Of a stretch of DNA of 64,000 bases, positions 28,362 through 47,862 are shown piece after piece. The stretch lies in assembly GCA_036481315.1 (NCBI GenBank), contig JAZGHS010000212.1:22363-86362 (forward strand), read 5' to 3'. This stretch comes from Candidatus Zixiibacteriota bacterium. Its GTDB lineage: Bacteria > Zixibacteria > MSB-5A5 > UBA10806. The translations under genes were made by a program, and so were the position numbers. Every line of letters starts with the position of its first letter. Position 1 is the stretch's first letter. The notes beneath the pieces are model-generated. The model saw only the letters and a program-made list of their open reading frames with translations, was not told the origin of the DNA and did no database searches.

Positions 28362-31238
28362 ATGAAAAAAGTTACTGTTTTCGCACTGCTTCCACTCATG
28401 TTGATCGCACTCCTCATGAATGTCGCCTCGAGTGAGCAAAACGCCAAATCCGACGCATTGCGCAGCCTTAAGGCCGATTTTCCCGGTATTCGGGCCTATT
28501 CCGAGGGTCAAAATATCACACGTGTTTTCGGGAAACAAATCGGGAACGGATCATCGCCGGAAAACTCAGCCGAGCTATTCAAAAACGAATATGTCGAACT
28601 TTTCGGGGTTTCCCCCGGGGATTTGAAGCCGGGAAGCAATCTCGTCGGCGGATTGAGAACGTTACCGCTGATGTACAACAAGGAGACAGGAGAACGTAAA
28701 TTCACGCTTGTCTACTATTCTCAATACGGAAATGACATCCCCGTCTTCAGGGCCGATCTCGGGCTTCTGGTCCGAAACGAATCGGGATTTCCCCTGGTAA
28801 TGGCGGCGTCGGCGCTGCGAGACCTTGACGGCTTCGAGGTCCCATTGGGTGTCGGGATCAATGCCCCGATGGCTCAAAACGCTGTTAAATCTTTCTACGC
28901 GGAACTTATCAATTTCAGCGAACCGAGGCTGGTAATATGGGCTGGGATCAACGATCAGATCGTCAGACCGGCCGTGGCTATGGAAATAATCGCTGACAAC
29001 GACAAATACGCGACACCCGATTACGAGAAATGGCTATTCTTGGTCGACGCGTTAACCGGGGAGTTGCTTTATACGGAAGATATGATCCTCAATACCGATA
29101 TCACCGGTAATGTAAGCGGTATGGCGACCGAAGGTTGGGGTGCCGATATCTGCTCTACCGAAGCAGTCACTTCGATGCCTTATGTTCGTGCCGAAATTCA
29201 GGGAGGGGAATGGGTTTACGCCGACGAGAGCGGCGATTTTGTTATCCCCAACGACGGGGATCTCGAGGACACGGTCATTTCCGAAATTCGCGGCCAGTGG
29301 TTCAGGGTGAATAACCAGTACGGCTCTAACGCCCGTTTGACAGAATCGGTTATCCCTCCGGGACCGGTCAATTTTATCCATAACGAAACGAATAACCGCG
29401 AACATAACCTGGCCGAGGTTAATGGTTATATTCACGCTAATGTAGTCCGCGATTATACGCTGACTTACAACGATACCTTTCCGACAATTCGCGACCAGGA
29501 AAATTTCCCCGTAAACGTTAATCTCAATGATAACTGTAACGCCTACTACGATTATAGCTCCATCAACTTTTATACCTCCGGCGGGGGATGTGCCAACACC
29601 GCTTTTTCGACCGTTGTTCATCACGAATACGGACATCACCTGGTAGCTGTGGCGGGAAGCGGGCAGGGCCAATACGGCGAGGGACTCGGCGATGTTATGG
29701 GGGTTTTAATCTCCGGGGAATCCGGACTCGCCTATGGATTCTTTAATAACTGCAGTCAGCCAATGCGCGACGCTGACAACAACCTTCAATATCCCTGCAC
29801 TGGCGAGATTCACGCTTGCGGACGATTGATTTCCGGATGTATATGGGATTTGCGTAACGAGCTTATGGCTAATTATCCCGATGAGTATGAGGATATAATA
29901 GGCACCCTTCTTACTAATTCAATACCTTTGCACAGGGGAGACCTAATCACTCCTAGTATCACTATCGATTTTCTGGTTTTGGATGATGACGACGGGGATA
30001 TCGATAACGGCACCCCTCATTACGACGAAATCTGCGCCGGATTCGGTGCGCACAATATGGATTGCCCCGTAATCGTCTTGATAGATTTTGACTATCCCGA
30101 TGGTCTTCCCGAACTGGTTAACCCCTCCGGCGAGACGACGGTAGCTGTCGAGGTTATCGGAGTAACCGAAAATCCTGAACCCGGAACCGGTATGCTTTAT
30201 TACAACGACGGCTCCGGCTGGGAATCGATTGCCATGGATGAAAGTCCGGAGAATGACTACGTCGGGACTTTTCCGGAGTTCGAATGCGGATCGACGATTT
30301 CATATTATTTCAGCGCCGAGACCGAAGGCGGGACGTTGGTAACCGATCCGGGTGACGCTCCCGCAACGACATTCTCCGCGTTCGCCGCTACAGGCTATAT
30401 AACCATTTTCGCTGATGATTTCGAGACCGATCAGGGCTGGGTGGTGGAGAATTCCTCCGGCCTTACCGATGGTCAATGGGATAGAGGAATACCGGTAAAT
30501 TGCCAGAGAGGCGATCCCGATAGCGATTATGACGGTTCCGGACAGTGCTACCTTACCGACAATGACGCGGGAAATGGCTGTAACAGCGATGTCGATGGTG
30601 GAAATACATATCTCATTTCGCCCGCGTTCGACCTTACGGATATGGAAGTTATCTTCAGGTTCGCACTGTGGTACACGAACGGTTTCGGCGACGATCCCCA
30701 CAACGACGTTTTCAATGTTTGGATTTCGCCCAACGACGGCGCGGACTGGTCAATCGTCGAAACAATCGGCCCGGTGTCGGCTGCTGAGTGGCTGGACCAA
30801 TGGTATATTATCGACGATTTCATCACTCCCACCAATGAAGTAAGATTCAGGTTCGATGTCTCCGATCTCAATCAGGGTTCTATCGTTGAGGCCGCTATTG
30901 ACGCTTTCGAGATTGTCGGCTGGGAATGCGAACCGACCGATATCGCCGATGAGATAGACGATATCGATCTACCTGTCGAATTCGCTCTTATGGGAAGTTA
31001 TCCCAACCCATTCAACGCCACCGTAACGATTGAATACGCTCTGCCTGAACAATCGAAAGTCTCTATCGATATATTCGATCTGCTCGGTCGTAAGATAGAT
31101 ACTATCGTAGACGAAACCAGACAGGCCGGATATCATCAGGCATCGTGGAATGCCGGTCAAAACTCCACAGGCGTCTATTTCTACAGCATCAAAGCCGGAG
31201 ATTTCAACGACACGAAGAAAATGCTTCTGCTAAAATAA
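28362..31238 (+). CDS. secreted zincin metalloprotease (HExxH) with a T9SS C-terminal sorting domain
   Basis: Signal peptide. VVHHEYGHHLV ... GEGLGDV. MAM/jelly-roll-like segment (GQWDRG...GQCYLTDND). Canonical Por CTD SYPNPFNATVTIEYALPEQSKVSIDIFDLLGRKI...GVYFYSIKAGDF...KKMLLLK. Confidence 0.7.
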   Translation: MKKVTVFALLPLMLIALLMNVASSEQNAKSDALRSLKADFPGIRAYSEGQNITRVFGKQIGNGSSPENSAELFKNEYVELFGVSPGDLKPGSNLVGGLRTLPLMYNKETGERKFTLVYYSQYGNDIPVFRADLGLLVRNESGFPLVMAASALRDLDGFEVPLGVGINAPMAQNAVKSFYAELINFSEPRLVIWAGINDQIVRPAVAMEIIADNDKYATPDYEKWLFLVDALTGELLYTEDMILNTDITGNVSGMATEGWGADICSTEAVTSMPYVRAEIQGGEWVYADESGDFVIPNDGDLEDTVISEIRGQWFRVNNQYGSNARLTESVIPPGPVNFIHNETNNREHNLAEVNGYIHANVVRDYTLTYNDTFPTIRDQENFPVNVNLNDNCNAYYDYSSINFYTSGGGCANTAFSTVVHHEYGHHLVAVAGSGQGQYGEGLGDVMGVLISGESGLAYGFFNNCSQPMRDADNNLQYPCTGEIHACGRLISGCIWDLRNELMANYPDEYEDIIGTLLTNSIPLHRGDLITPSITIDFLVLDDDDGDIDNGTPHYDEICAGFGAHNMDCPVIVLIDFDYPDGLPELVNPSGETTVAVEVIGVTENPEPGTGMLYYNDGSGWESIAMDESPENDYVGTFPEFECGSTISYYFSAETEGGTLVTDPGDAPATTFSAFAATGYITIFADDFETDQGWVVENSSGLTDGQWDRGIPVNCQRGDPDSDYDGSGQCYLTDNDAGNGCNSDVDGGNTYLISPAFDLTDMEVIFRFALWYTNGFGDDPHNDVFNVWISPNDGADWSIVETIGPVSAAEWLDQWYIIDDFITPTNEVRFRFDVSDLNQGSIVEAAIDAFEIVGWECEPTDIADEIDDIDLPVEFALMGSYPNPFNATVTIEYALPEQSKVSIDIFDLLGRKIDTIVDETRQAGYHQASWNAGQNSTGVYFYSIKAGDFNDTKKMLLLK

Positions 31239-33056: not shown

Positions 33057-33079
33057 GGGGCCGAAATTAATTCGGCCCC
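33057..33079. terminator. hairpin between convergent genes; U-tract only on the minus strand
   Basis: GGGGCCGAA-ATTAA-TTCGGCCCC; minus-strand reading is followed by TATTTTTATT. Confidence 0.45.
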
Positions 33080-33115: not shown

Positions 33116-35614
33116 TTATTTCATTTCAGAATTAGCATCTTTAGATTTATCATCCGATAATATGTCATTTCCTCTTCTTGGCGACGGGGATCCCGGAGGG
33201 CAACTCGGGCAGGAAAATAGCTCCGGGTTTCCAGTCTTCAGTTTAGAGAATCCCGCTATCACGTCCGCGACATTAAAGCCGCAGGAGGCGTTCAAATCCA
33301 TCGCGACCGCCCAGGTATTTCCGGATCCGGGGGGGCATTCACAAAGAAGAAAAGCATCGGGCAAACCGGTTTTCAGCTTGGAAAAGGCGCTGATTATATC
33401 GGCCACATTCATTGATTCACTACCGTTGTAATCGCCGATTACATACGACCCGCATCCGCCTGTTTCGCTTAAGAATATGTAATTTGTTTTAATCTCGATA
33501 TCGGAACCGTAGGCGTTGGTAGCCGTGAGAGTTACTGTAAAATGGTCAAGTTCATTGTAAACATGGGTAGGATTAGCAAGATCACTCGTGCCGCCATCCC
33601 CGAAATCCCATAACCAGCTTGTAGGGCCGTTAATGGATAGATCGAAGAAACTTACCTCCATAGGAGGGATACCCGCGAGGGGAGAGCCCACGAAATCGGC
33701 GATAGGGGCGGCGAGGATAACCTCGATATAATCTGGTTTGCTTTCCATATCCGTACCGTAACTGTTGGTAGCCGTTAAAGTGACCGTATATGTTCCCGCA
33801 TCTTGGTAAACATATGTGGGATTAGTTAAATCGCTCGTACCCCCATCTCCGAAATCCCATGACCAGCTTGCGGGGGCGTTCGTCGAAAGGTCGCTAAAGC
33901 TCACCTCCAGGGGTACGCCACCGTTTACCGGATCTCCGCTAAAATTCGCCACCGGGGCAAGACCGTATACGATATTAATCACTGTATCCCGCGCGACACT
34001 TACATTCGTGAAGGTGACAGTATCGGGTATATCCGAAAGTGAATCGGGGCTGTAGGTAAGATCGTAAGTCTCGGGCTTGACCAGAATTTCATAGAATCCT
34101 GTGACGTCCGATTTATTTCCGGGAGTGTGAACCTCCTGTTGAGTAATACTTTCGATCGCCGTGATCCTGACATCTACTTCCGGAGTACCGTTCTCCAGAG
34201 TAATTGTCCCGGAGACAACCATTCCGGTATCCAGAGAAACGTCGTATTGGATATCAGCGAAAATCGATTGATCAAACAGCTTTGTTGCCGCCAGTAAGCG
34301 GATTCTCGGCGGCTCGAATTCCAGATGATATGTTCCCTCCGCAAGAACGGTTTGATATTGGCCCAACCCATCTGTATGATCGCCCACCAGCGGAACACTT
34401 AGATCACTCAATACATCGATAGCGTCGATATCCACATCTACGACGCTCGCCCCGAACGAATTCAGCACCGTTCCGTATAGAAGAATTCCGGTTGAAAGAA
34501 CAACATCCAGCTGTGTATCGCTATTCACGGCAACCGAATCCTCCCTGATAGGCGCAAGGTAGGGAGGAACAACAGGTGGCTTATAAACAACATCATACAT
34601 CCCGAACTGTGGGAGAACCACCTGATAAAAACCGAATTCATCTGTATCATCGCCGGGAGTGAATAGATCGACGCCGTTATTCGAGTGCCTGATATCGAGA
34701 TCCACACCGGTAACACCCGCCCCGTCAGGATCCCTTACCGTTCCATAAAAAAGAAAACCGGGTTCGATTACAAAATTCTGGGTTATATCACCGAAAACCG
34801 CTACCCCGTAGACGATTCCGGGCAATAACCGAGTTTCCGGAAGCGGAGCTACATTTATTTCATATGTTCCCTGCGGAACGAGCATTTGATAATCGCCGTT
34901 ATCATCGGTGTTATCGCTTGGAGTATAGACTTTAATGCCTGTCAGGCTGTCTTTAGCGTCGAGATCGGCGTTAGTAACCGGATCGTCGTTTAGATCTATT
35001 ACCGTTCCGGTGATAAAAAAGCCGTCTTGAAGCGTAATATCGAGCTCGGTATTGGAGTTGATCGCCATATTTTCAATCTCGACGGCAACGTACCGTGGAT
35101 TGGATATGCCGCCTCGATACCGATAGGTCACTCGAAACAGACCCGCGGGTAGAATAATTTCGTAAAGACCGTCAACATCCGTGTTATCGCCGGGAGTAAA
35201 CAATTGGACTCCTGTAATTTGATCATATACGTTTAAATCGACATCCTCTATACCATTCCCCTGGGAATCGAAAACGGTACCTGTAAATAAATGCCCGTTT
35301 TGAAGTGTTATATCGAGCGTTACGTTTGAATTTACAGACACATCCGTTAAATATACTGGTATTAATCCCGTGGAAGTTCCTGGCCTGAAACTTATATCGT
35401 AAGTACCGGCATCGACAGAAACGCTGTAAAATCCCAAAATATCCGTAGTATCAATATACGGGCCTATTGGTGAACCGTCTGGCGCGTAAAGCTGCACGGC
35501 TACGTTGTCTTCATGCCCACCGTTGGCGTCGACTGTACCCGAAATGGATTGAGCAAACGCCGAAGATGATAAAGCCATAATTATCATTAGAAGTGTTTTC
35601 CTGATGTCGAGCAT
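33116..35614 (-). CDS. secreted multi-repeat protein: about 6 carboxypeptidase-regulatory-like beta-sandwich repeats, 2 PKD domains, C-terminal Cys-containing dockerin-like module
   Basis: Signal peptide. Repeats with the D-x-D...TG....TP.DNTD..G.Y motif. Two WDFGDGGTSDL PKD domains. C-terminus GDYNGSESMNVADIISAFSKLKTGLPDAFLLCECPPGSGNTWAVAMDLNASCGFNVADVIAGFSKLKTGNPELFSCPSCPP. Confidence 0.6.
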   Translation of the reverse strand: MLDIRKTLLMIIMALSSSAFAQSISGTVDANGGHEDNVAVQLYAPDGSPIGPYIDTTDILGFYSVSVDAGTYDISFRPGTSTGLIPVYLTDVSVNSNVTLDITLQNGHLFTGTVFDSQGNGIEDVDLNVYDQITGVQLFTPGDNTDVDGLYEIILPAGLFRVTYRYRGGISNPRYVAVEIENMAINSNTELDITLQDGFFITGTVIDLNDDPVTNADLDAKDSLTGIKVYTPSDNTDDNGDYQMLVPQGTYEINVAPLPETRLLPGIVYGVAVFGDITQNFVIEPGFLFYGTVRDPDGAGVTGVDLDIRHSNNGVDLFTPGDDTDEFGFYQVVLPQFGMYDVVYKPPVVPPYLAPIREDSVAVNSDTQLDVVLSTGILLYGTVLNSFGASVVDVDIDAIDVLSDLSVPLVGDHTDGLGQYQTVLAEGTYHLEFEPPRIRLLAATKLFDQSIFADIQYDVSLDTGMVVSGTITLENGTPEVDVRITAIESITQQEVHTPGNKSDVTGFYEILVKPETYDLTYSPDSLSDIPDTVTFTNVSVARDTVINIVYGLAPVANFSGDPVNGGVPLEVSFSDLSTNAPASWSWDFGDGGTSDLTNPTYVYQDAGTYTVTLTATNSYGTDMESKPDYIEVILAAPIADFVGSPLAGIPPMEVSFFDLSINGPTSWLWDFGDGGTSDLANPTHVYNELDHFTVTLTATNAYGSDIEIKTNYIFLSETGGCGSYVIGDYNGSESMNVADIISAFSKLKTGLPDAFLLCECPPGSGNTWAVAMDLNASCGFNVADVIAGFSKLKTGNPELFSCPSCPPGSPSPRRGNDILSDDKSKDANSEMK

Positions 35615-35648: not shown

Positions 35649-37622
35649 CTATCGTACCAATAACATATTATGGGTTGAAGAACCCTTTGAAGTTTTCAAT
35701 TGATAAAAATACAAACCGCTGGCAACCTGCTCCCCACGGCCGTTATCGCCATCCCAGCTGATCGTATGGTAACCGGGTGATTTAATTCCTTTATCGATCT
35801 TTTTCACACGTTGACCGAGACTATTATAAATAATAAATGAAACATCGGTCTGAACAAATAAAACATACGATATCATGGTTCCCGCGTTAAACGGATTGGG
35901 AAAATTATCATTCAATATAAAACTGATCGGGGGCGCGCTTCCGCCCTCTGTTAGTAAAATTGTTACCGATGAATCCGACGAAATATTAAATCCCGGCAAT
36001 AACTGATTGTCCAAAGCCGTTCCGACGGGCGGCGTGACCTCTATCGTATACACGCCCGAGTGCACGGTAATGTCTGCCGTACCGTCAATATCGGTATTAT
36101 CATGCGGGGTGAAGATTGTAGACCCGGAACTTTCCAATACAAAATCGAAATCGGCGGCCTCCACCGGTGACCCCCTCGGGTCGAGCACAAGTGCGGAAAA
36201 TATATAGCCCTCTTTTAATATAATATCGTTCCAGGTAGAGTCCTGATCTATAAAGACTTTTCCCAGATTCTCACCTACGTAACGGCTTCCCCTGAGAGGC
36301 TCGATCTCGGCGTTGAAACCACCGATCGGTACAAGTATGCTGTAATTCCCCAGAGAATCGGTGATGTTATCCGCGACGTAAATTTTCGAGCCAGCCACCG
36401 TATCGGAGAAATTTATCTCGATATCCACGAGTCCGGCGCTATCGGTATTTATAATTCTCCCCGATATATTGACTTTGGGGACCTCGGGCAGGAGAAAATC
36501 CATACTGGTATCCGCGAAAATGGTTACACCGTTCAATACCAGCCGATCGTAAATAGAACCGGGAGGCGGCTGAACCCTGATAGTGTAGATATCCGCCGGA
36601 ATCGCAATTGTGGTTACGCCCATACTGTCAGTCTCATCGTTCGGAGTGAAAAGTTTCGCCCCCGTACTCTCCTGAATAATATCGAGATCGGCGCCCGCTA
36701 TGGGATTACCGGTTGAGTCATGGACAAACGTAGAAAGAAGCCATCCCGCCTCCAAAATTTGATTCCGCGCGATATCGGCGTCGACAACGAAACTATCCAA
36801 TACTACACCAACGTAAGGGCTTCCGAGAGGAGGTTCATAGCGAAGCCTATACATCCCCGCGGGAACCGCCACGTTGTGATAACCGATCATATCGGTCTCG
36901 TTATTCGTAAGGTAAATTTTCTCACCTGTTATCATCGCTCTAAGATCTATACTGATATTTTCAAGCCCCTGGCCGAGTTCATCGGTTACATATCCGCTTA
37001 ATAGCATCCCCTCCGATAAGGAAACATCGATAACAGTATCGGCATAAATAGATAGGGAATCCATCTGCATTCCGAGCCAACGGGTTCCCGCCGGCGGTTG
37101 ATATCTCAGCCTGTAATTCCCCTGCGGAACCACAATCCAGTAATTGCCCAGACTGTCGGTTTTATCGTTTGGCGTATAGATCCTCTCCCCGGTTGATAAA
37201 TTATCGGCGTCCAGATCAACTCCGAGCACCGGCGAACCGTTACCGATAACCACCCCGTGAATTATTTTACCGAATCCAAGCGTGACATCAATCCGCCGAT
37301 CCACATATATTGAATCGTTAAACCTCCGGTGCCCCAAAAGATTCGTCCCAGGCGGAGGACCGTAAGAGATATTATAAACTCCGTTAGGTACCCAGATGGC
37401 GTAATATCCATCCTGATCGGTATTATCTCCTGGTGTGGGCACTCGCTCACCGGTTACGGCGTCATCGAAATCAAGATCGACATCGGCCACCGGGTTACCG
37501 TTAGGATCGTAAACAAACCCGGTAACATACGATATCAATGTGTCGGATACGCCTAAGCTTGCAAAGGCGAGGACTATCAAAATTCCGATAATCTTTAATA
37601 ATGTCGGTAAACGATGACTCAT
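35649..37622 (-). CDS. secreted multi-repeat protein (about 6 CarboxypepD_reg-like repeats) with a T9SS C-terminal sorting domain
   Basis: Same repeat family as 33116..35614. Canonical CTD FPNPFNAGTMISYVL...IYNSLGQRV...SGLYFYQLKT...NMLLVR. Confidence 0.65.
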   Translation of the reverse strand: MSHRLPTLLKIIGILIVLAFASLGVSDTLISYVTGFVYDPNGNPVADVDLDFDDAVTGERVPTPGDNTDQDGYYAIWVPNGVYNISYGPPPGTNLLGHRRFNDSIYVDRRIDVTLGFGKIIHGVVIGNGSPVLGVDLDADNLSTGERIYTPNDKTDSLGNYWIVVPQGNYRLRYQPPAGTRWLGMQMDSLSIYADTVIDVSLSEGMLLSGYVTDELGQGLENISIDLRAMITGEKIYLTNNETDMIGYHNVAVPAGMYRLRYEPPLGSPYVGVVLDSFVVDADIARNQILEAGWLLSTFVHDSTGNPIAGADLDIIQESTGAKLFTPNDETDSMGVTTIAIPADIYTIRVQPPPGSIYDRLVLNGVTIFADTSMDFLLPEVPKVNISGRIINTDSAGLVDIEINFSDTVAGSKIYVADNITDSLGNYSILVPIGGFNAEIEPLRGSRYVGENLGKVFIDQDSTWNDIILKEGYIFSALVLDPRGSPVEAADFDFVLESSGSTIFTPHDNTDIDGTADITVHSGVYTIEVTPPVGTALDNQLLPGFNISSDSSVTILLTEGGSAPPISFILNDNFPNPFNAGTMISYVLFVQTDVSFIIYNSLGQRVKKIDKGIKSPGYHTISWDGDNGRGEQVASGLYFYQLKTSKGSSTHNMLLVR

Positions 37623-37636: not shown

Positions 37637-39451
37637 TTATATATCGATTTTCAAATTAAATCTGTTTATCGTCGCTTTCTTATCAAAGGGCGAATAAGCC
37701 TCGCCAGGTGTGAACATACCGAAAACCCATCCAATATGAACCCGATTCCAGAGTTTGGAAACTCCCAAAACGATATCCAAAGACGTTCCGATATCGTCGC
37801 TTACCCCGTTAGGGCGGGCAGGAGGATCAATCAGGTCCCCTCGCAAATCGGCCTCAGGCTGATCCTGTTTATAGACATGATAAACAACCTCGATCGAACC
37901 GTTATAAATCGGCTTGAATCCTACGCCAAAAGTAGTAATTATTAAATTGCTTAATTCCGGATCGAGAAGTTCGCCGTAATATTTGAATATCCGTACGCCT
38001 CCGAAATAACCGGTATTATCCTGAAAACCGGTCTGCCTGAATTCGTTATCGTCGGCACCAGTCTTTTCGCCGCTTCCACGGGCATATGCCACGGTAATCG
38101 ACGGCGAATAATTGACGTTTTCGGCTATGGCCGTTACTCCCAGATCCATTGCCGAAGCGCTCAATGATTTGCCTTTATCCGTACCTTTCATTATCACCAA
38201 TTCAGCCCAGGGGTTAAAATAATCTCCAACCTTGCCCATATAACCGGCGCCATACCATGATGGTTCCCGGTTGCGGGCTTGATCGCTGTCTTTTCTTACC
38301 AGAAGATACCCGCTTACAGTATTCTTATTGTTTACCTGCCAGCGAGCCCGGGCAAAAATATCCGACCAGGTCCTATATTTATTTTTTAGCTGAAAATCGG
38401 AATGAATATAAGCGAGCTCGTATATAACCGGCGCCTTGCCGTAATAATATAATCTCACCGCGTCGAGATACTCATCGAAAAGCCATTCCCGGGGATCTTC
38501 GATATCCTGCCGTCCCACCTGGACCGCAAAACCCTGCACACCTATATTTTTCGCCAGCACATAAAGCTGAGTGACTCGGCTCTCGAGCTTTTTCGACGGC
38601 GGATTGATCCTTTCGCTGTCTAAATAGATCCTCTCTCTTATACTGATCTGTCCAAAAGCGCGAAAAATATCGTTGAAATATCCGGCAAGTTCGGCCCTTA
38701 TCTCCGGCTGAGCATCCCTCTGATCATTTAGATAAAGATCGGATAGATCATATTCGGATTCGTTTTTTGCAGACTGACGGAAATTCCCGCTGATCAAAAA
38801 CTTATCCCCCGCGATAAATCCATAGTCGCTGTAATAAGCACGCGCCCAGGCCAATTCATCGAAAAGGTCCTCTTCAATTTTTTGAAACGAACTGCCCGGA
38901 TAGTTAACATCGGTCTTTCGATTCAGCAGAATTTTCAACCCGTGAATCTCCAAGGTGTCGGGAGGGTTACCGTCGACCGAAACTCCGGTCAGGGTGCCTT
39001 TGATTTTATTGCTCTTTTTGATATTCTTATGGTTGATTTTCCTGGCTTCCCAATTACCATCCTCCCTCACCTTACAGGTAACCTCCAGCCACTGACCTTC
39101 TTTGAGATCATTTATAGTCGTTAACCCGTCTCCAGAATCTGTGAATTGAGTTTTATCATCGATCTCGATCGATATCCCGTACATGGTGATAGTTTCTTTC
39201 TTCGAATCGACAATCTGCAAAATTCCCCGTAGTTTCGGCCGCCTCGGCTGAGGAAGCTCCTCTATATCGGAGGTTATAAACGCCCCCTGATCATTATCCC
39301 AATCGCCTTTTATCTCCACAGCCGGGATCTTCTCGAAATCGAGCCTCATGTATTCAGGCTCTCCTTCGGCCACGGCAATCTGAGATGAGAAAAGATACAA
39401 ACAAATCCCAAACAATAATCCGATTGTCACGATGGGCTGTTTTAAAGTCAT
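37637..39451 (-). CDS. putative outer-membrane beta-barrel (alginate-export/AlgE-like) with an N-terminal periplasmic domain
   Basis: Signal peptide. Alternating amphipathic beta-strand pattern with aromatic girdle residues. First gene of the glycan-locus tail. Confidence 0.35.
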   Translation of the reverse strand: MTLKQPIVTIGLLFGICLYLFSSQIAVAEGEPEYMRLDFEKIPAVEIKGDWDNDQGAFITSDIEELPQPRRPKLRGILQIVDSKKETITMYGISIEIDDKTQFTDSGDGLTTINDLKEGQWLEVTCKVREDGNWEARKINHKNIKKSNKIKGTLTGVSVDGNPPDTLEIHGLKILLNRKTDVNYPGSSFQKIEEDLFDELAWARAYYSDYGFIAGDKFLISGNFRQSAKNESEYDLSDLYLNDQRDAQPEIRAELAGYFNDIFRAFGQISIRERIYLDSERINPPSKKLESRVTQLYVLAKNIGVQGFAVQVGRQDIEDPREWLFDEYLDAVRLYYYGKAPVIYELAYIHSDFQLKNKYRTWSDIFARARWQVNNKNTVSGYLLVRKDSDQARNREPSWYGAGYMGKVGDYFNPWAELVIMKGTDKGKSLSASAMDLGVTAIAENVNYSPSITVAYARGSGEKTGADDNEFRQTGFQDNTGYFGGVRIFKYYGELLDPELSNLIITTFGVGFKPIYNGSIEVVYHVYKQDQPEADLRGDLIDPPARPNGVSDDIGTSLDIVLGVSKLWNRVHIGWVFGMFTPGEAYSPFDKKATINRFNLKIDI

Positions 39452-40758
39452 CTTTTTTCTCCGCTTAAAATGTTTTTCCCCTCTTGTGAACTATTTATTT
39501 CAAGTAATAGATTTTTCGCTATGCTTTTCCACCTGGGGCGAAGCGAATATAACCCCGCGAGACGTAATAGCGCCGCCGCCCTCCACCAATTCACCCGTTT
39601 TGTAAATTCTTTACCCGCCGATTCGTAGCCGCTCACAAACGCTTCCGATCCGTCTATGATCATCATCTCGTTCTCGGGCGATTGATACCGTCGTAAATCC
39701 AAATGTGCCATGAAATTCCCATAATCTAAAGCCGGGTCGGATAAGGCCATGTTATCGAAATCGAGCAGGGTTGCCCGACCGGGAGAATGAAGAGTCTGTT
39801 TGTCGTAAAAATCGCGATGAACGGGCCCGACCGCATAATCATCGCCGATTCTTCCCCGCGTAATCCCCGAGTAGGCGTCGCCGAACGCCTCACCAAGTTC
39901 GGGAAAGACACTATTTATAATATCGACTATTTTACTCAAACTGTCAAGCTCGTCGTCGGCTGTGTAATAGGGCAGATCGCCTAACGAAATCGAATGCAGT
40001 TTGCGAATCAATCGTCCCGCTTCATGGCAGGATTCGGGAAAAGATCGATTTCCGATTAACGAATGCAAAGACCGACCCGAAACGAATTCCATGAGTATAA
40101 TCCCGTGATCATTATCGCAACCCAGATACTCCGGTACAGTCAAACCATCGGATGAATCCGCGGTCATTTCGGTTGCGGAAAACTTTTCGAAGATTTTCAA
40201 AGCAGCCGCGATCTTTTTAGGACGTGCTATTTTGGCGACAACCTTGATTCTCTCGATACCGTCATTTTGTTTCATATCAAGTGTATATTCGAACACGCAT
40301 CGACGTTCAAGACGGTAGCCAAGCAAACGGCATTCGATCACATCGAACTTTTTTCCCGCGAGAAAGGGAATCGCCCCAAGACGTTTTTTAGGTTTACCCG
40401 TGACAACAAAATCGGGAAGATATTTGAGTTTAGGATCGTAAGGGAATACAGGGACGACCAAACCTATATCATCGAATATTATGAGGTCTTGCCGAGGCGC
40501 TAATGTTTTACCGGGCAGTGTCTGATCAAGCCCCAGCAAGTGACCCCATAATATAATTTTCTCTTCGCCTTTTTCCGTCTTGTCTATTATCAAATTGTAA
40601 CTGATAGAAAATCCACCGTCATTCCGAGGGAAAGCCCTGGGGATATACAGATATTTCAATTCCCCTTCTTTTCCCAAAAATCGATCGATCTCCTTTTGAA
40701 AACGGGATTTCATCCGATCGATATCTGTCGCGGCTTTAAAATTAGAAACTATTCCCAT
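39448..40758 (-). CDS. APH/choline-kinase-fold phosphotransferase (kinase B)
   Basis: Catalytic loop GPVHRDFYDKQ and a DFD metal-binding motif (LLDFDNM); paralog of the upstream gene. Confidence 0.55.
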   Translation of the reverse strand: MGIVSNFKAATDIDRMKSRFQKEIDRFLGKEGELKYLYIPRAFPRNDGGFSISYNLIIDKTEKGEEKIILWGHLLGLDQTLPGKTLAPRQDLIIFDDIGLVVPVFPYDPKLKYLPDFVVTGKPKKRLGAIPFLAGKKFDVIECRLLGYRLERRCVFEYTLDMKQNDGIERIKVVAKIARPKKIAAALKIFEKFSATEMTADSSDGLTVPEYLGCDNDHGIILMEFVSGRSLHSLIGNRSFPESCHEAGRLIRKLHSISLGDLPYYTADDELDSLSKIVDIINSVFPELGEAFGDAYSGITRGRIGDDYAVGPVHRDFYDKQTLHSPGRATLLDFDNMALSDPALDYGNFMAHLDLRRYQSPENEMMIIDGSEAFVSGYESAGKEFTKRVNWWRAAALLRLAGLYSLRPRWKSIAKNLLLEINSSQEGKNILSGEKR

Positions 40759-42119
40759 TACGACTCCAGGATCTTCTTACATTCGGCCAAAATCGTTGTT
40801 ATGCCTTCCTTCCAATTCGGCTCCAGCCTGCGAAACGGTCCCACAGCCAGTTGATAAAGCCCGAAGGCTATCCAGAAATTTAGATTCGACATCTCAATAT
40901 CTTTAATCTCTTTATACGTCTTCAAAAAGATCGTTTCTATATCTTTCTCGCCGTCAAGCTCGCCTCTTAAGCGCAACAGCTTTATGTGAGCCAGGAAGTT
41001 CCCTATGTCGAATACAGTATCGCCCCGATGGGATCGGTCGAAATCCAGTATCGATACTTTTCTTGTACGACATAATACCTGGCCGTAATAAAAATCGCCG
41101 TGAACAAAACCGGGTTTATCCGCCGCCAGAGAGTGATTTTTTAATTCATCGAAAATAGTATCGGCCAGTTTCGCCTCGATGGGAAGTATTTTTGTCAGCA
41201 TTCTGCGGGTTTCCTCGGCGTCATCGATATAACTTGCCCGAGATTTCTCGCTCAACCCAGGGATATCAAAACCATGCATTGCCGCCAGCGCGATTGCCGT
41301 CTTCGATATATTAGCCGCGCGGTTATCGCCCTCGATACTCTCTAAAAATTGTTTCCCCCGCGCTTTTTCCATAATCAACGCTTTTCTTTCGGGCAAGTAT
41401 GTCAATGGACGCGGCGAAGTGAACAAACCGGAATCTTCCGAGAGCTTATGAATCTTCTCTTGCAACGAAAACAGAGCCGCGCCCCGATCGTCAGCGTAAA
41501 CCCTTATATACAACTTTAGCCATACCCATTTGCTAGTTTCCCTGTTCTTCGCTCTCGCTCTGCAACGAAGCACAACACGTCGTTCCGGCTTATATCTGAC
41601 CGTACTCAGACTGATCTGTCTATTCGAAATACGCCATTTATCTTCCGGGTATTGGTCATAGTTCTCGTATAAAATCCTCTGGATCTTTTTAAGATCGGAC
41701 AGGATGCGAAGACCGTCGATTAAACAATCGTTCGGATAAAAATAAAGGATAGTGGCGTGCTCGGGAAGAGTTATGTACGGCTCCAAATCGGGAATCGGAA
41801 TCCAGCGCGATGATGCCGCCTTGCGCGTGGCGTTTTCATAATCATCCTCAGTATATAATTTAGCGTAAAATAATATCTCTTTGGGTTCGCCGTCCTTTTC
41901 TAACTGAAGCTGATAAGCAACAATACAATTTGTACCTGGTTTATATCTTATATAGAGAATACGACATTCCTTTACAACGCCCACGCTTTCAGGAAGCAGG
42001 TCGGCCAATATCGAGCCGACATTTTCCGGAACCAACAACACCGAAAGCCCCGGAAGGCTGTCATCGACCGGAATGTCGTCCCTTTTAATTTTATCCGCGT
42101 AACGTTCGCTTTTTAGCAC
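40758..42119 (-). CDS. APH/choline-kinase-fold phosphotransferase (kinase A)
   Basis: GFVHGDFYYGQ and ILDFDRS; 1-bp overlap with kinase B. Confidence 0.55.
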   Translation of the reverse strand: MLKSERYADKIKRDDIPVDDSLPGLSVLLVPENVGSILADLLPESVGVVKECRILYIRYKPGTNCIVAYQLQLEKDGEPKEILFYAKLYTEDDYENATRKAASSRWIPIPDLEPYITLPEHATILYFYPNDCLIDGLRILSDLKKIQRILYENYDQYPEDKWRISNRQISLSTVRYKPERRVVLRCRARAKNRETSKWVWLKLYIRVYADDRGAALFSLQEKIHKLSEDSGLFTSPRPLTYLPERKALIMEKARGKQFLESIEGDNRAANISKTAIALAAMHGFDIPGLSEKSRASYIDDAEETRRMLTKILPIEAKLADTIFDELKNHSLAADKPGFVHGDFYYGQVLCRTRKVSILDFDRSHRGDTVFDIGNFLAHIKLLRLRGELDGEKDIETIFLKTYKEIKDIEMSNLNFWIAFGLYQLAVGPFRRLEPNWKEGITTILAECKKILES

Positions 42120-42176
42120 TTTTAATATGCTCCCGGTTTCCTTTAGTGATTTTCTCCGCCGATGTATCGACCGGTT

Positions 42177-44039
42177 TCACTTATCCTCTAATTTTGCGTT
42201 CTTAGTTCCCTCTGGGATTTCTTCAGGAGGTTTAGCCGCCTCATTATCCAAATAATAATAAAACTCTCCTTTGCGCTTCAATAGTTCCTCGACGGTGCCC
42301 TGCTCGATTAGACGTCCGTCCTCGATATAAGCCGCCCAATCGGCAAGCTCCAGAAAATTCAATCTGTGTGTTATTATCAATAATGTCCGTCCCGGTTTCA
42401 ACGCTCTCAACGCCTCTATGGCTCCCTTCTCGGAGTGAATATCGAGGCCGGTGGCCGGCTCGTCGAAAATCATAATAGGAGAATTTTTCAACGCCGCCCG
42501 GGCGAAACTTATCCTCTGACGCTGTCCACCGGATAAAGTATCGCCGCCCTCGCCCACCAACGTCTCATATCCTTCCGAAAACTTCTCGATGAAACCATCG
42601 GCGCCCACAAGACGAGCGGCCTCTTCGATCTCCTCCCTGGTTGCCCCCGATTTACCGAAAGATATATTCTCCTCGATTGTCGTACGAAATAAAAAAGAAT
42701 CCTGGGTCAAGCTGGTAACCCGTTTACGAAGAGATCGGATTCTATATTCGCCGATATCACGCTTATCGATATATATCGCCCCCGCCTGTGCTTCGTACAA
42801 TCGAAGTAAAAGCTTGGCGATTGTGGATTTTCCGGCCCCAGTCGAGCCGATCAAGACCGTGGTCTTGCCCGCCGGGATAAACAGATTCATCCCTTTAAGC
42901 ACTTCGTTGCCGTCGATATAAGAAAAATATACGTCTTCGAATTTAATATTGCCTTTTATTCTCTTAGCCGATTTCGCGCCGGGATGATCCTCGACCTCAG
43001 GATGGATATCCAGTATCTCCATAATCTTCTCGCCGCGTACTATCGCTTTCGATGTCCGAGCCGAAAGGCTGGCAACCGTGCGTATAGGACGATATATACC
43101 GCGAAGATATGTAACGAAAATAATCAGATCGCCCGGCGAAATATTTCCCTCTAACGCTTTATGCGCCCCGATCAATAATACTATTCCGGTACCAACCGCG
43201 GTTACAATCTCAACCACCCTGGCGTAATTGGCGGCGAGTTTTGTGGTTCTGAGATTGGCCCTGAAATCGCTCGAAATCGATTTGCCTATCAACTTTTCCC
43301 GGATCTTTTCCTGGGCGAATGCTTTCACCTGGCTTATCCCCGAGATCGATTCCTCCATGGAGGCCACCATCTTGCCATACTTTTCGCGTTGACGATTGGC
43401 CGCGCTTTTTATTCTCCCTGTAAACTTAAAGGCGGCGATTACGAATAATGGCATAACCGCTAGAATCAATAGCGCTAATTGCCAGTCTAAAAAGAAAGCT
43501 ACCGAAAGCATCCCGAATATGAGAACAAATTGACCCACCAGGCGAATCAGGGTCTCTACCATCAAATCCTGCAAGAGGTTTATATCGCCGGTAAGCCTGG
43601 TGATGATTTCTCCGGTCTCACTGTAATCGTGATATGATTGCGGTAACCGTTGTACATGAGAGAAAAGCTGAAGCCGTATGGCGGCCAGTACCGCATGGCC
43701 TACCGTCTTGGCCCAGACGCTTTGAGCGTACTCGAGCGAACTGCTTATCAGGGCCATGGAAAGAATCGACCCGGCGGCGAGGAAAATCACGGTCATCGGA
43801 TCCCAACCCTTCAGGGGATTTAAAAACGAGATATCCGATGCTCGATCCGGCATTAACGCATAATCAAAAATAATTTTCAACGGCCACGGACGCAGAAGGG
43901 TCATTGCCGACATACCCAGTAACGCGAACGTGCTTAAGATCAGCTTGCCCTTGTGTGGTTTCAGATGCACGGCAAAATGGGATATCACCCTTCGTAATGA
44001 GCCAAAATCGATTTTAGCAAGTCCGTATTTTATTTTCAT
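42177..44039 (-). CDS. ABC exporter, fused TMD-NBD (MsbA-like lipid/glycolipid flippase type)
   Basis: 6 TM helices; Walker A GSTGAGKST; signature LSGGQRQRISFARA; Walker B IMIFDE. Confidence 0.8.
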   Translation of the reverse strand: MKIKYGLAKIDFGSLRRVISHFAVHLKPHKGKLILSTFALLGMSAMTLLRPWPLKIIFDYALMPDRASDISFLNPLKGWDPMTVIFLAAGSILSMALISSSLEYAQSVWAKTVGHAVLAAIRLQLFSHVQRLPQSYHDYSETGEIITRLTGDINLLQDLMVETLIRLVGQFVLIFGMLSVAFFLDWQLALLILAVMPLFVIAAFKFTGRIKSAANRQREKYGKMVASMEESISGISQVKAFAQEKIREKLIGKSISSDFRANLRTTKLAANYARVVEIVTAVGTGIVLLIGAHKALEGNISPGDLIIFVTYLRGIYRPIRTVASLSARTSKAIVRGEKIMEILDIHPEVEDHPGAKSAKRIKGNIKFEDVYFSYIDGNEVLKGMNLFIPAGKTTVLIGSTGAGKSTIAKLLLRLYEAQAGAIYIDKRDIGEYRIRSLRKRVTSLTQDSFLFRTTIEENISFGKSGATREEIEEAARLVGADGFIEKFSEGYETLVGEGGDTLSGGQRQRISFARAALKNSPIMIFDEPATGLDIHSEKGAIEALRALKPGRTLLIITHRLNFLELADWAAYIEDGRLIEQGTVEELLKRKGEFYYYLDNEAAKPPEEIPEGTKNAKLEDK

Positions 44040-45298
44040 AGTTTACCCGATTCGGTTTTCGCTCCGGCCATCAGGTCTTCAAAAATACGGCTGACCGTTT
44101 TCAATCGGCTATTCCAGGTATGCTTAGCAACAGCCTCGATCCTGGCGTTTTCTCCGAGTTTTTTTCTCAAACCCGGATCGTTTTTAAGCCTTAAAAGGGC
44201 GTCCCGCAACGCCACGGCATCTCCAGGAGGAACAAGGAGGGCGGTTTGTTCGTGAACCAGTATTTCCTCTATCTGCCCTATCGACGATGCCACTATCGCT
44301 TTCCCGGCCGCCATATATTCGAAAATCTTCAACGCCGAAAAATAAAAATCGTTCAGATCGGGATAAGGAGCAACTAAAACATCAGCCATTTCCAGAAAAG
44401 CGGGTATCGTTTCATGTTCAACGGAGCCGGTGAATTTCACCCGACCCTTCAACCCGAGTTCGCGGCACTTCTGTTTTAATTCTGATTTCAGTTTTCCCTT
44501 GCCACCTACCACAAGAAGCCTGTCTTTAATTTCGTTTTTTGATAGATCCGCGAAAGAGTCGATCAGGATCTCCACACCGTGCCAGGGTTTGAGACTGCCC
44601 ACAAAACCGACCACAAAATCGGATTTGTCGAACCGATCGAATGAAAGATCTATATCTTTCAAGCCGTCTGAATTCGTAAATTGCTCCACCGTTACACCGT
44701 TTGGAATAACCGATACCGCAGCCCCTGGCGCGACACTCTTAATATACCCGGCGACCTCGTCGGAAACGGATATTATATGATCCGCATCCTCGAAAAGATG
44801 TTGTGCTACCGATATGGCCAGATCCTTCTGCGCTAACCCCCGATATTCCGCGGCTTCCACAACCAGAGGAGCGTTGACTTCTAGAGTAAATGGAAGTCCG
44901 TTCGCCCGAGCAAATTTTAATCCCGCCTGGCAAAATAACGAGTATCGTTCGTATATAAGATCAAAATTGCTCTGCGAATGAAGCATCGATATAAAAGTCT
45001 CGACAGCGTTATTATGGTCAAATAAATTCATCTCCGCTGATATTTTATTATCTACAGTAGCGGCCGCCGAATTCTCCCCCGCCACGCTATCCGGCAGAGG
45101 GGGAAGATCGAAATACAAAACCGAGTTATACTGATGGCCATTGGCATCGGCGCCCCGGGCGACAACCGTAATATCATACCCCTGCTTTTGGAGATTGCTC
45201 ACAAATTCCCGCATATGAATAGAACCGCCCTTGGTGCCCCAGTAAGGAATACCGGTATCGGCGCAGAGGTAGAGTATTTTTCTTTTCGATTCACTCAT
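44036..45298 (-). CDS. GT4-family glycosyltransferase
   Basis: N-terminal ILYLCADTGIPYWGTKGGS; C-terminal EYMAAGKAIVASSIG (the E-x7-E region). 4-bp overlap with the ABC gene. Confidence 0.75.
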   Translation of the reverse strand: MSESKRKILYLCADTGIPYWGTKGGSIHMREFVSNLQKQGYDITVVARGADANGHQYNSVLYFDLPPLPDSVAGENSAAATVDNKISAEMNLFDHNNAVETFISMLHSQSNFDLIYERYSLFCQAGLKFARANGLPFTLEVNAPLVVEAAEYRGLAQKDLAISVAQHLFEDADHIISVSDEVAGYIKSVAPGAAVSVIPNGVTVEQFTNSDGLKDIDLSFDRFDKSDFVVGFVGSLKPWHGVEILIDSFADLSKNEIKDRLLVVGGKGKLKSELKQKCRELGLKGRVKFTGSVEHETIPAFLEMADVLVAPYPDLNDFYFSALKIFEYMAAGKAIVASSIGQIEEILVHEQTALLVPPGDAVALRDALLRLKNDPGLRKKLGENARIEAVAKHTWNSRLKTVSRIFEDLMAGAKTESGKL

Positions 45299-45319
45299 AT
45301 TATCTCTCGATTTCCATTC

Positions 45320-46576
45320 TTAGCCAGTAACCTGCGACAGGTCCCTTTTTTCAAGATAATGCCCGATCATCGTTTCTATGTTTTGCTTAAGATCGAATTT
45401 ATCTTGTGCTTTCTTGCGTCCCGCCAAGGAAAATCGGGCCTGAAGTTCTCTCGACGATAAAATTCGCTCGATCCACTCGGTTAATTTTATCGGATTGTCC
45501 GGTTCCACCAAAGCCCCGTTGATCTCATGATCAACCATCTCCGGCACGCCGGATATGGTCGTGGAGATTACAGGCAGACCTAAAGCGAGCGCTTCTATGA
45601 TGACCGTGGGCAAGGCGTCCTGGTTACCGTCGTTATCGACCGTGCAGGGCAGGCAAAACAGAGTCGCCCTACGCATAAGATCGAGAACCTCGTCCAACGT
45701 CTTCGCTCCGGTAAATTCGACATCGTCATCGGTCAACCCCAGTTCCGTTTTTTTATTATGAAGATTTTCCCATTCGGAACCGTCGCCGACTATAAGACAT
45801 TTAAAATCAACGCCTTTGTCTTTTAAAAGCCTGCAAGCGTCGAGAAGAGTCCCGAATCCCTTCTTAGGTACCAGCCGACCGACTCCCAATATCAGGCTTT
45901 CCTCCCGACCCCTGGTTTCCACGGGCGTAAATTCATCAAGATCGATACCATTGTGGATTACCTTTATCACGGACGGGTCTATATGGGGTGCGTTTTCGGT
46001 TAGATATTTATAGTTATAATTAGTTACGGTCACGACAAATTTTGCCGCGGCGAGTTTCTCGGCCAGAAGATGCTCTTTCATATCGTAAACGAAAATATCC
46101 TTGGCGTGAGCGGTGAAGCTGAAAGGGATGCCGGATATCAAATGCGCGTAATAAGCCATCGTACTCGGCTGACTGGCGAAATGAGCGTGAAAATGCGAAA
46201 TCCCCATCTCGATCCCCCTGGCCGCGATCCAGGCCGCGTGGAGAACCATCTCGATTTTATGATTGTTTTTCTCGGCCAGGCCCTGCTCGAGTAACGGCCA
46301 GAACCTATCTGCTCGAGGCGCGAGATACTCCCAAAGTTCGCCCAGCCACGTTCCCCACTTTTTAACGTCGAATCCCTCGAGATAATAAGCCCTGGCTTTC
46401 AAATAGGCGACCTGTGGATGAAATATCCCTTCGTTCGGTTTCTTAAGTGAAAATATAGATATCCGCGCGCCGCGACGTTCGAGTTCGAGCATTTCATTTA
46501 AGATAAACGTTTCCGAAATTCGCGGATACATCTTTACTATATAGCCGAGTTTTAAGTCTATTCCCTCTTCTAACAT
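45320..46576 (-). CDS. GT4-family glycosyltransferase
   Basis: GT-B fold; C-terminal EALALGLPVISTTISGVPEMV. Confidence 0.7.
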   Translation of the reverse strand: MLEEGIDLKLGYIVKMYPRISETFILNEMLELERRGARISIFSLKKPNEGIFHPQVAYLKARAYYLEGFDVKKWGTWLGELWEYLAPRADRFWPLLEQGLAEKNNHKIEMVLHAAWIAARGIEMGISHFHAHFASQPSTMAYYAHLISGIPFSFTAHAKDIFVYDMKEHLLAEKLAAAKFVVTVTNYNYKYLTENAPHIDPSVIKVIHNGIDLDEFTPVETRGREESLILGVGRLVPKKGFGTLLDACRLLKDKGVDFKCLIVGDGSEWENLHNKKTELGLTDDDVEFTGAKTLDEVLDLMRRATLFCLPCTVDNDGNQDALPTVIIEALALGLPVISTTISGVPEMVDHEINGALVEPDNPIKLTEWIERILSSRELQARFSLAGRKKAQDKFDLKQNIETMIGHYLEKRDLSQVTG

Positions 46577-47847: not shown

Positions 47848-47862
47848 AAAGACCTCGGTTTT

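Follow-up and report, generated by a model that had tools for sequence, protein, structure and literature searches.

A predicted cysteine-rich dockerin as an alternative C-terminal tag to the T9SS sorting domain in Zixibacteria

Two adjacent genes in a 64,000-nucleotide stretch of a Candidatus Zixiibacteriota contig (JAZGHS010000212.1; the whole stretch is referred to as the window) encode proteins with a common repeat body and different C-terminal ends, a T9SS sorting domain in the 657-aa protein and a cysteine-rich module in the 832-aa protein. The locus raises the question of what this module is and whether it serves as an alternative address to the T9SS tail. The explanation that we favour, with a probability of about 0.6, is that a cysteine-stapled, Ca2+-binding dockerin acts as a portable C-terminal tag on varied Sec-exported surface or extracellular cargo in Zixibacteria, docking on a receptor and having the T9SS domain as its alternative. 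The features of the locus are collected in Table 1.

Table 1. Coordinates of the features discussed, numbered from the first letter of the window
Feature	Position	Strand	Remarks
Module copy 1	7439..7732	+	In 193-aa protein 7220..7801
Module copy 2	8985..9266	+	End of beta-helix and CarboxypepD_reg gene 7848..9269
958-aa HExxH protein with T9SS C-terminal sorting domain	28362..31238	+	
Intrinsic-terminator-like hairpin	33057..33079	-	9-bp stem, 7 GC, then T run
832-aa ORF (module-bearing protein)	33116..35614	-	
23-aa hydrophilic tail	33119..33187	-	PSPRRGNDILSDDKSKDANSEMK; after the module; degenerate form of the family tail
Cys-rich dockerin module (predicted)	33188..33472	-	Residues 715-809 of the 832-aa protein
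Two PKD domains	33473..33958	-	Residues ~553-714; PKD_4 117.6 bits, 2 stretches
Six CarboxypepD_reg-type beta-sandwich repeats	33980..35551	-	~88 aa each; body common to 657-aa paralogue
Putative Sec-type signal peptide	35552..35614	-	MLDIRKTLLMIIMALSSSAFA/QS, read by eye from the sequence
657-aa paralogue	35649..37622	-	Signal peptide, six CarboxypepD_reg repeats, T9SS type A C-terminal sorting domain
T9SS type A sorting domain	35652-35912	-	Last 87 residues of the 657-aa protein
604-aa outer-membrane barrel (DUF5666 and Alginate_exp)	37637..39451	-	14 nt upstream of the pair
Two APH-like kinases, ABC exporter, three glycosyltransferases, UDP-glucose dehydrogenase	39448..49263	-	Upstream, same strand unit
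Sigma-54 two-component pair	49528-52413		

The paralogous pair and its operon

The 832-aa and 657-aa proteins align along roughly 470-510 aa (BLASTP E 5e-51, 28-29% identity) and are true paralogues, not proteins resembling each other in low-complexity regions only, a possibility that the sequence-only reading had allowed for. CarboxypepD_reg (PF13620) was recognised in the two paralogues with 85.5 and 83.4 bits (cutoff 32.3), and each protein contains six units of about 88 aa. The beta-sandwich repeats that the earlier reading had attributed to both proteins are thus common to the pair, but their period is not the ~95 aa given there, and the label of PKD repeats does not apply to the shared body. 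It holds only for the two PKD domains of the 832-aa protein, which are lacking in the 657-aa paralogue and missing from the 832-aa orthologues in two related loci (L014 and L016). The description of the protein as a giant was likewise inaccurate, its length being only 832 aa. The N-terminus of the 832-aa protein reads as a Sec-type signal peptide.

A Por C-terminal domain had also been proposed for the 657-aa neighbour, and TIGR04183 was indeed matched at its extreme C-terminus (residues 574-652) with 37.1 bits against a cutoff of 23, while PF18962 remained below threshold (20.3 vs 27) and FlgD_ig scored 43.7 bits. Genes for the T9SS machinery (SprA/Sov, PorV, PorU and others) were absent from the window; the 44 proteins with a T9SS C-terminal domain in related loci speak indirectly for its presence in the genome.

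The genes upstream of the 604-aa barrel form an exopolysaccharide synthesis and export cluster, which is followed on the same strand by the T9SS/dockerin pair with spacings of 14 and 34 nt. The terminator-like hairpin lies 37 nt past the stop codon of the 832-aa gene, at the end of this minus-strand operon. The gene order ABC-APH-APH-barrel is conserved in related loci and the position of the barrel is kept in five of them, as seen from Pfam-labelled genes in L012, L013, L014 and L016 and by direct inspection in L001. The pair itself, in the order T9SS then dockerin, stands last in the exopolysaccharide export operon of 9 syntenic loci whose identity goes down to 42%, and the gene for the 958-aa HExxH protein is a conserved neighbour past a convergent amidase gene.

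The 832-aa module had been called a third copy, and tblastn returned exactly three copies in the window. Copy 1 showed 70% identity to the 832-aa module (E 6e-46) and lies in an ORF (7220..7801) whose 193-aa product has the same sequence as P0001, a candidate division Zixibacteria protein that NCBI lists as hypothetical, while copy 2, in ORF 8547..9269, showed 56% identity (E 6e-29). The gene bearing copy 2 is broken by an in-frame TGA at 8520-8522; selenocysteine at this position is unlikely, a SECIS-like structure being absent (z 0.09).

Relationship of the module to type I dockerins

The module had been located exactly by the sequence-only reading, and translation of its stretch on the minus strand, within the 832-aa ORF, gave LSETGGCGSYVIGDYNGSESMNVADIISAFSKLKTGLPDAFLLCECPPGSGNTWAVAMDLNASCGFNVADVIAGFSKLKTGNPELFSCPSCPPGS. 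It consists of two segments, each with a Ca-loop and a helix, separated by a linker in which a CxC-bearing beta-hairpin (CECPPGSGNTWAV) is inserted, and is closed by C-x-x-C-P-P. The module arose as an internal duplication, its halves sharing 18 of 34 residues, a value matched by none of 100,000 shuffles. The two loops, DYNGSESMNVAD and DLNASCGFNVAD, are both EF-hand-like and follow the near-invariant pattern D1-x-N3-x-S5-x-x-x-N9-x-x-D12, so that putative Ca2+ ligands occur at positions 1, 3, 5, 9 and 12 of each repeat and the module may bind Ca2+. Among 160 family instances D1, N3 and D12 were conserved at 97-100% and N9 at 82-89%, while position 5 of loop 2 was Ser in 82% and N, T or D in the others; the six cysteines were conserved at 96-99%.

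The module alone gave nothing significant against Pfam and NCBIfam with E values up to 10, and the family escapes both collections, having previously had no model in either. None of the window copies reached the gathering threshold of the type I dockerin model PF00404: the 832-aa copy and copy 1 gave no match and copy 2 gave the best score in the window (E 0.2, 12.3 bits vs 22.9). Divergent family members, in contrast, matched PF00404 inside the module (P0087 with 40.2 bits and P0107 with 23.9 bits). The family was then compared by hhalign with an alignment (A6) of 12 canonical-length, Cys-containing dockerin tails carried by homologues of the same repeat body, 11 of which are recognised as Pfam Dockerin_1, resulting in a probability of 97.1% and an E value of 6e-11. 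The module is homologous to dockerins on account of this profile-profile match to Pfam-positive tails and of the PF00404 matches in divergent members.

Structure prediction pointed in the same direction. The AF2 model of the module (pLDDT 84.6, pTM 0.75) showed by DSSP two helices, at 23-35 and 68-80, each preceded by a loop, and the best 28 Foldseek matches of the model in the PDB were all dockerins, with probabilities up to 0.99. A sequence-profile search of the PDB returned sub-significant matches only (best E 0.24), six of the eight being dockerins. The predicted fold is thus that of a type I dockerin, and the module, which had been named dockerin-like from its sequence, is according to profiles and model a divergent cysteine-rich version of this domain.

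Type I dockerins (PF00404, Dockerin_1) of clostridial and ruminococcal cellulosomes (PDB 4dh2, 4fl4, 5nrk, 2ccl) share with the module the duplicated segment of about 22 residues, in which a 12-residue EF-hand-like loop precedes a helix, the C-terminal location on secreted modular proteins and the occasional occurrence of double modules. The Zixibacteria module differs from them in its six conserved cysteines, the 8-residue beta-hairpin insertion in the linker, the invariant C-x-x-C-P-P end, a conserved tail of about 28 aa that is not always present and a score below the PF00404 threshold, as well as in its diderm candidate-phylum host, its mostly non-CAZyme cargo and the lack of a cohesin in the searches made. 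The A6 tails (e.g. P0201, P0203 and P0224) belong to the same cargo family, are C-terminal and have cysteines ahead of loop 1, behind helix 1 and at their extreme end, as the module does; unlike it, they reach PF00404 (up to E 4.5e-10) and have neither the inserted hairpin, nor a Cys in loop 2, nor the CxxCPP terminus.

After the protein has left the cytoplasm, the six cysteines of its module are most probably joined in disulfides. A tendency to lose the N-terminal Cys jointly with one linker Cys, seen in a few variant modules, is a weak hint that the two may be disulfide partners. The cysteines could also bind metal instead of forming disulfides, a possibility that is considered below.

A portable tag that excludes the T9SS domain

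The module family comprises 813 representative clusters at E<=1e-3 and 220 at E<=1e-10, and all but one of its named sources are Zixibacteria. In about 96% of the members the module lies within 35 aa of the C-terminus; about half end at or near CPP, no more than 4 residues past the module, and about 45% carry a tail of 15-35 aa with the consensus ..P.GGD.PLVVPNLESKAK.. after it. The tagged cargo is diverse, including CarboxypepD_reg arrays, beta-helices, PKD, BACON, LVIVD and FG-GAP proteins and S8 and C25 peptidases, and one MAG encodes 15 tagged ORFs across 11 of its loci.

The use of the two tags was surveyed in loci totalling 880 kb, which contained 106 dockerin-tagged and 44 T9SS-tagged genes. 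None of these 150 genes carried both tags; in the loci examined the dockerin tag is therefore an alternative to the T9SS tail. Five cargo families or clusters had members with either tag, and T9SS genes accounted for 20% of the immediate neighbours of dockerin-tagged genes and for 4.7% of the genes at greater distance (odds ratio 5.1, p 9e-7, in a statistic that counts orthologous loci and hence non-independent cases). The claim that paralogous cargo carries alternative tags was thus borne out beyond the pair from which it had been drawn, and such tagging is a general feature of the genomes of these uncultured Zixibacteria. Swapping of tags between related genomes, which had been put forward as a check, was not seen between orthologues in the 9 syntenic loci, where the pair is fixed, and occurred only between deeper clades of the family, as judged from a crude neighbour-joining tree of the repeat bodies (BLOSUM distances, no support values).

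The T9SS type A domain (TIGR04183 / PF18962) resembles the module in being a portable C-terminal unit of about 80-90 aa found on diverse secreted cargo and on paralogues of the same cargo families. It is an Ig-like beta-sandwich, unrelated to the two-helix Ca-binding fold predicted for the dockerin module, and is a cleaved export signal, whereas an export role of the dockerin module would be hypothetical. The module might nevertheless be mainly an export or sorting signal, read by a secretion machine and leading to a route across the outer membrane other than T9SS type A. Its C-terminal position on many unrelated cargos, the strict exclusivity with the T9SS domain, which would be expected of two alternative export signals, the failure to find a cohesin in the searches made and the conserved PLVVPNLESKAK tail, which could be a recognition or cleavage motif, are all consistent with such a role. 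We consider it unlikely, as both the fold and the profile homology point to a docking module, 14 of 146 proteins contain at least two modules and the module is sometimes internal or N-terminal, a pattern usual among dockerins but not among secretion signals, and no secretion-system genes were linked to the module in the loci examined.

Still less probable is a purely structural role without any addressing function, in which the module would stabilise the protein as a Ca2+- or metal-binding cap, or serve for oligomerisation, and would bind metal through CxC ... CxxC. The combination of CxC and CxxC is a common metal-ligand arrangement and no partner emerged from the searches, but neither the strict exclusivity with the T9SS tail nor the spread over many cargo types at the extreme C-terminus would be expected of a structural cap, and the joint loss of two cysteines in a few variants resembles that of a disulfide pair.

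Possible receptors and surface display

Dockerins are known from textbooks as the plug of Gram-positive cellulosomes, and non-cellulosomal dockerin/cohesin systems were reportedly surveyed more widely by Peer and co-workers in 2009. A cohesin partner (PF00963) was searched for and none was detected in Pfam scans of most window ORFs of at least 150 aa, among the best 25 of the 51 families listed for 31 genes next to dockerin genes in one MAG, or in 10 large T9SS proteins (C25, S8, M28 and M14 peptidases and BNR proteins). Jackhmmer with approximate cohesin sequences also returned nothing in 664 genes, a weak negative, as are all these cohesin searches, which covered the window and related loci. 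A literature search gave nothing on Zixibacteria together with dockerin, cohesin or type IX secretion, and nothing relevant on dockerin with Latescibacteria or with disulfide.

A close parallel is found in Ca. Stygibacter (Cloacimonadota), where dockerin-tagged enzymes occur together with a cohesin scaffoldin of 3,755 aa that ends in a T9SS C-terminal domain, these FCB-group dockerins being non-cellulosomal and detected by standard models (Williams et al. 2021, PMC8542988). Both systems belong to T9SS-bearing diderm lineages, secrete proteins with dockerin tags, S8 and C25 peptidases among them, and combine dockerin and T9SS tails within one genome. The Zixibacteria differ in that their Cys-rich dockerin is missed by standard models, no scaffoldin was found in the searches made and tandem paralogues bear alternate tags.

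In the mechanism that we favour, the tagged protein would most likely dock non-covalently and in a Ca2+-dependent manner with a receptor module located at the cell surface or within the matrix, while the T9SS-tagged paralogues would instead be exported and covalently anchored by T9SS. The 657-aa and 832-aa proteins are an ancient tandem-paralogue pair, and since their genes appear to be co-transcribed as the last two of the exopolysaccharide synthesis and export operon, the pair probably brings one and the same carbohydrate-binding-like repeat array to two separate envelope or matrix sites. A dockerin is a docking module and not a proven sorting or export signal, and we know of no way across the outer membrane that it provides, so the tagged proteins could stay periplasmic.

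The receptor might also be the adjacent T9SS-tagged paralogue, or its repeat body, the two proteins forming a display unit for which no cohesin is needed. The roughly five-fold enrichment of T9SS genes directly beside dockerin-tagged genes speaks for this arrangement, together with the same-cargo tandem pairs in several families, which include an alternating dockerin-T9SS-dockerin-T9SS array (L072), the fixation of the 832/657 pair in 9 loci and the absence of a cohesin from the searches. About three quarters of the dockerin-tagged genes, including the window copies at 7220 and 8547, nevertheless have no T9SS neighbour, the T9SS forms of the alternating array have, besides the cargo in common and the sorting domain at the C-terminus, no domain that could be a distinct receptor module, and replacement of the tag after a tandem duplication would likewise yield adjacency; we therefore regard a paralogue receptor as improbable. 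A cohesin-independent, two-tag surface display, in which the dockerin form docks on a T9SS-anchored partner or leaves the cell with it via T9SS, a system that can move folded proteins, and in which layered or polymeric surface arrays attached to the exopolysaccharide export operon are built, is similarly doubtful. If a T9SS-anchored partner were the receptor, it would represent a new way of bacterial surface assembly.

Cargo proteins occurring as matched pairs that differ in their address tag could serve to test the role of each tag, with the limit that in the pair described here the 832-aa protein also has two PKD domains that its partner lacks. The family defines a large dockerin subfamily, with at least 220 representative clusters that escape Pfam and NCBIfam, and a profile built from it would better annotate hundreds of surface proteins now called hypothetical.

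Identification of the module as a Cys-rich dockerin

The segment under study, close to the C-terminus of the 832-aa protein, reads C-x-x-Y-V-I-G-DYNGSESMNVAD-IISAFSKLKTG ... C-E-C-PPGSGNTWAV-A-M-DLNASCGFNVAD-VIAGFSKLKTG ... C-P-S-C-P-P, and its halves are identical at 18 of 34 residues, a level reached in 0 of 100,000 shuffles. The sequence-only reading was correct in calling it a third copy and in its coordinates, as tblastn returned exactly three copies in the window and the exact translation was obtained (Table). The 193-aa and 832-aa products are identical to the homologous proteins P0001 and P0173, the latter named 'PKD domain-containing protein [candidate division Zixibacteria bacterium]' at NCBI, and the window derives from a Zixibacteria MAG.

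The last 118 residues of the 832-aa protein have no Pfam match, and the module reached none of the Pfam and NCBIfam models, the best being Dockerin_1 (E 0.2) on the copy in ORF 8547..9269. When 17 modules were aligned (A1), both D-x-N-x-x-x-x-x-N-x-x-D loops proved invariant, as did one Trp, C-x-x-C-P-P and another three Cys, and the sixth, N-terminal Cys was nearly so. A PDB profile search with the module gave weak matches only, six of the eight being dockerins. The AlphaFold2 model built from A1 (pLDDT 84.6, pTM 0.75) showed two helices, each preceded by a loop, with a short hairpin in between; dockerins were its top 28 Foldseek matches in the PDB (probability up to 0.99, target TM 0.66-0.88). 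Dockerin tails of canonical length occur on homologues of the 832-aa protein's repeat body, and Pfam Dockerin_1 recognizes 11 of 12 such tails (best E 4.5e-10); hhalign matched A1 to them across both repeats with 97.1% probability (E 6e-11), PPGSGNTW being an insertion in A1. In divergent members the Dockerin_1 match falls within the module itself (P0087, 40.2 bits; P0107, 23.9 bits). The motifs, the predicted fold, the hhalign result and these matches together define the module, earlier described as dockerin-like, as a divergent, Cys-rich subfamily of type I dockerin, new within the known dockerins.

A full HMMER search over 1.84 billion representatives returned 813 proteins at E<=1e-3, of which 220 remained at E<=1e-10 and 58 at E<=1e-30; lengths run from 87 to 1,770 aa. 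Organism-named sources were all Zixibacteria except one MAG labelled Ignavibacteria (11 loci, 15 tagged ORFs). Across 160 instances of the module, taken from the 146 top-scoring proteins, conservation was 96-99% in all Cys columns but one; the remaining, N-terminal Cys occurred in 149, its column drifting by a residue or two, and its co-loss with a linker Cys in rare variants hints that the two may be paired. At least two modules were present in 14 of the 146 proteins. The module lies <=35 aa from the C-terminus in ~96% of members, roughly half of which end at or near CPP (<=4 residues), while ~45% carry an extra hydrophilic tail after it (..P.GGD.PLVVPNLESKAK..., or in longer form ..P.GGD.PLVVPNLESKAKL.TGSGMD), which might serve as a motif for recognition or processing. 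Cargo types included CarboxypepD_reg, beta-helix/NosD, BACON, LVIVD, GEVED, FG-GAP, PKD, cupredoxin, S8 peptidase and BNR. A second Cys-rich motif, GACC..C.....E..C....GG.W..GE.C..F.C, not recognised as a named domain, stands directly before or after the module in P0023-P0025, P0094-P0097 and P0103.

Table. Features of the window
Feature	Position	Strand	Remark
Tail-fibre-like 'GNVGIGTTTP'-repeat protein, 898 aa	4462-7158	+	5' of 7220-7801
193-aa ORF with a module copy	7220..7801	+	70% identity to 832-aa copy (tblastn)
Split beta-helix + CarboxypepD_reg + Cys-dockerin gene	7848-9269	+	one in-frame TGA, 8520-8522
Module copy, ORF 8547..9269	8985-9266	+	56% identity to 832-aa copy (tblastn)
958-aa protein	28362-31238	+	HExxH motif (VVHHEYGHH), T9SS tail
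Terminator-like hairpin	33079-33057		strong
832-aa protein ORF	33116..35614	-	ORF translation
Degenerate version of family tail	33119-33187	-	in 832-aa protein
Module	33188-33472	-	residues 715-809 of 832-aa protein, exact translation
657-aa neighbour	35649..37622	-	CarboxypepD_reg, 83.4 bits; C-terminal FlgD_ig / Por_Secre_tail region (Pfam)
Minus-strand unit closed by the pair	37637-52413	-	upstream of pair; exopolysaccharide-type cluster

Paralogous cargo with alternative C-terminal tags

The 832-aa and 657-aa proteins are, judged from their alignment (BLASTP E 5e-51, 28-29% identity across 470-510 aa), genuine paralogues, as had been proposed, with six ~88-aa units each. The Por CTD assigned to the 657-aa protein was likewise verified, residues 574-652 matching the T9SS type A sorting domain TIGR04183 of NCBIfam (37.1 bits, cutoff 23). 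The description as a PKD-repeat giant did not hold: the common repeats are CarboxypepD_reg beta-sandwiches (85.5 bits in the 832-aa protein) rather than PKD, and 'giant' overstates 832 aa. Two PKD domains do occur in the 832-aa protein, and this pair is found only in its closer orthologues.

Of the 105 repeat-body homologues, ~45 ended in a Cys-dockerin (by HMM), 24 in a T9SS CTD, ~15 in a canonical dockerin and ~9 in an 'ALSHVLAL' tail; the others had different ends. The bodies of T9SS-tagged P0211 and P0221-P0234 are distinctly nearer to the 832 type (237-345 bits) than to the 657 type (150-206 bits). In a crude NJ tree the Cys-dockerin proteins, bar two marginal HMM matches (P0209, P0261), formed one clade, which includes the untagged P0187 and P0192 and adjoins clades whose members bear canonical dockerins or T9SS tails. 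The 832-like bodies with T9SS tags and this clade layout thus indicate that tags were replaced between clades. The swap looked for over a conserved body did not extend to the syntenic pair: a T9SS paralogue is directly followed by a Cys-dockerin paralogue at nine loci (the window, L001, L012, L013, L014, L016, L017, L018 and L036), with tags fixed while orthologue identity falls from 87% to 42%. The distant ~520-aa clade P0265-P0275 ends in a conserved '...AQLAVRDP.A..G.ALSHVLAL', without dockerin or T9SS domain; this tail may be another C-terminal tag.

The pattern proved general in 95 loci (880 kb, 664 genes) drawn from the window, a genome scan and a metagenome scan. None of 150 tagged genes (106 Cys-dockerin, 44 T9SS-tail) combined both tags, and with tags masked five cargo clusters mixed the two kinds, including the 832/657 family (10 and 8 members) and the S8 and C25 peptidase families, bearing out the idea of paralogous cargo with alternative tags. 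T9SS-tail genes were 25/125 (20%) of those directly beside a dockerin gene and 18/383 (4.7%) of those further away (Fisher's odds ratio 5.1, p 9e-7, a significance overstated because the orthologous loci counted are not independent). At L072 (9425-13471), four tandem paralogues of ~280-300 aa, in the order dockerin, T9SS, dockerin, T9SS, have one cargo domain of ~200 aa in common, a cleaner matched set than the 832/657 pair.

Genomic context of the tagged genes

The pair closes an exopolysaccharide synthesis and export cluster, encoding in order a sigma-54 histidine kinase and regulator, UDP-glucose dehydrogenase, three glycosyltransferases, an ABC exporter, two APH-like kinases and an AlgE-like outer-membrane barrel (N-terminal DUF5666, Alginate_exp), followed by the 657-aa gene (gap 14 nt) and the 832-aa gene (gap 34 nt). 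The order ABC exporter-APH-APH-barrel-pair is the same in L012, L013, L014 and L016, and L001 has the same barrel-pair-protease arrangement. The repeat proteins may be linked to the polysaccharide. The 958-aa HExxH protein, lying beyond the convergent amidase, has no catalytic-domain match in Pfam and is kept as a neighbour in L001, L013 and L017. A cbb3 oxidase and a DsbD_2 protein, also encoded in the window, are compatible with an oxidising envelope.

In the split gene, the TGA separates ORFs of 224 and 240 aa, the latter without signal peptide. The homologues P0057 and P0066 continue uninterrupted through this position; P0062 (55% identical) is likewise called as a 240-aa ORF with the same start, 62 nt into its contig. 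No SECIS-like fold was found 3' of the TGA (z 0.09). The TGA may mark a pseudogene, stem from an error in sequencing or be recoded. The 193-aa ORF belongs to a small family (~190-209 aa) with signal peptide, ~50-aa 'NYSIDWYVIASGGG...' domain, Gly linker, module and tail, whose genes lie directly 3' of one to three tail-fibre-like genes at 6/6 loci with upstream sequence (also L004, L023, L037, L042 and L052). Its products may be adaptors for surface fibrils.

Proposed role of the module

The best-supported reading is that the predicted Ca2+-binding, disulfide-stapled module would act as a docking tag, holding cargo non-covalently on a putative receptor, in place of export and anchoring by the T9SS. 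Pfam found no cohesin in most window ORFs of at least 150 aa, in 31 genes neighbouring dockerin genes of one MAG (best 25 of 51 families) or in 10 T9SS proteins, and a probe of the 664 genes with approximate cohesin sequences gave no match. The nearest published precedent comes from Cloacimonadota, where a dockerin/cohesin system has a scaffoldin bearing a T9SS CTD (PMC8542988). A literature search for Zixibacteria together with dockerins, cohesins or T9SS returned no linking paper, and the pattern of tandem paralogues bearing either a T9SS or a dockerin tag, never both, appears to be undescribed. The matched pairs offer a way to test what dockerins do in diderm bacteria.
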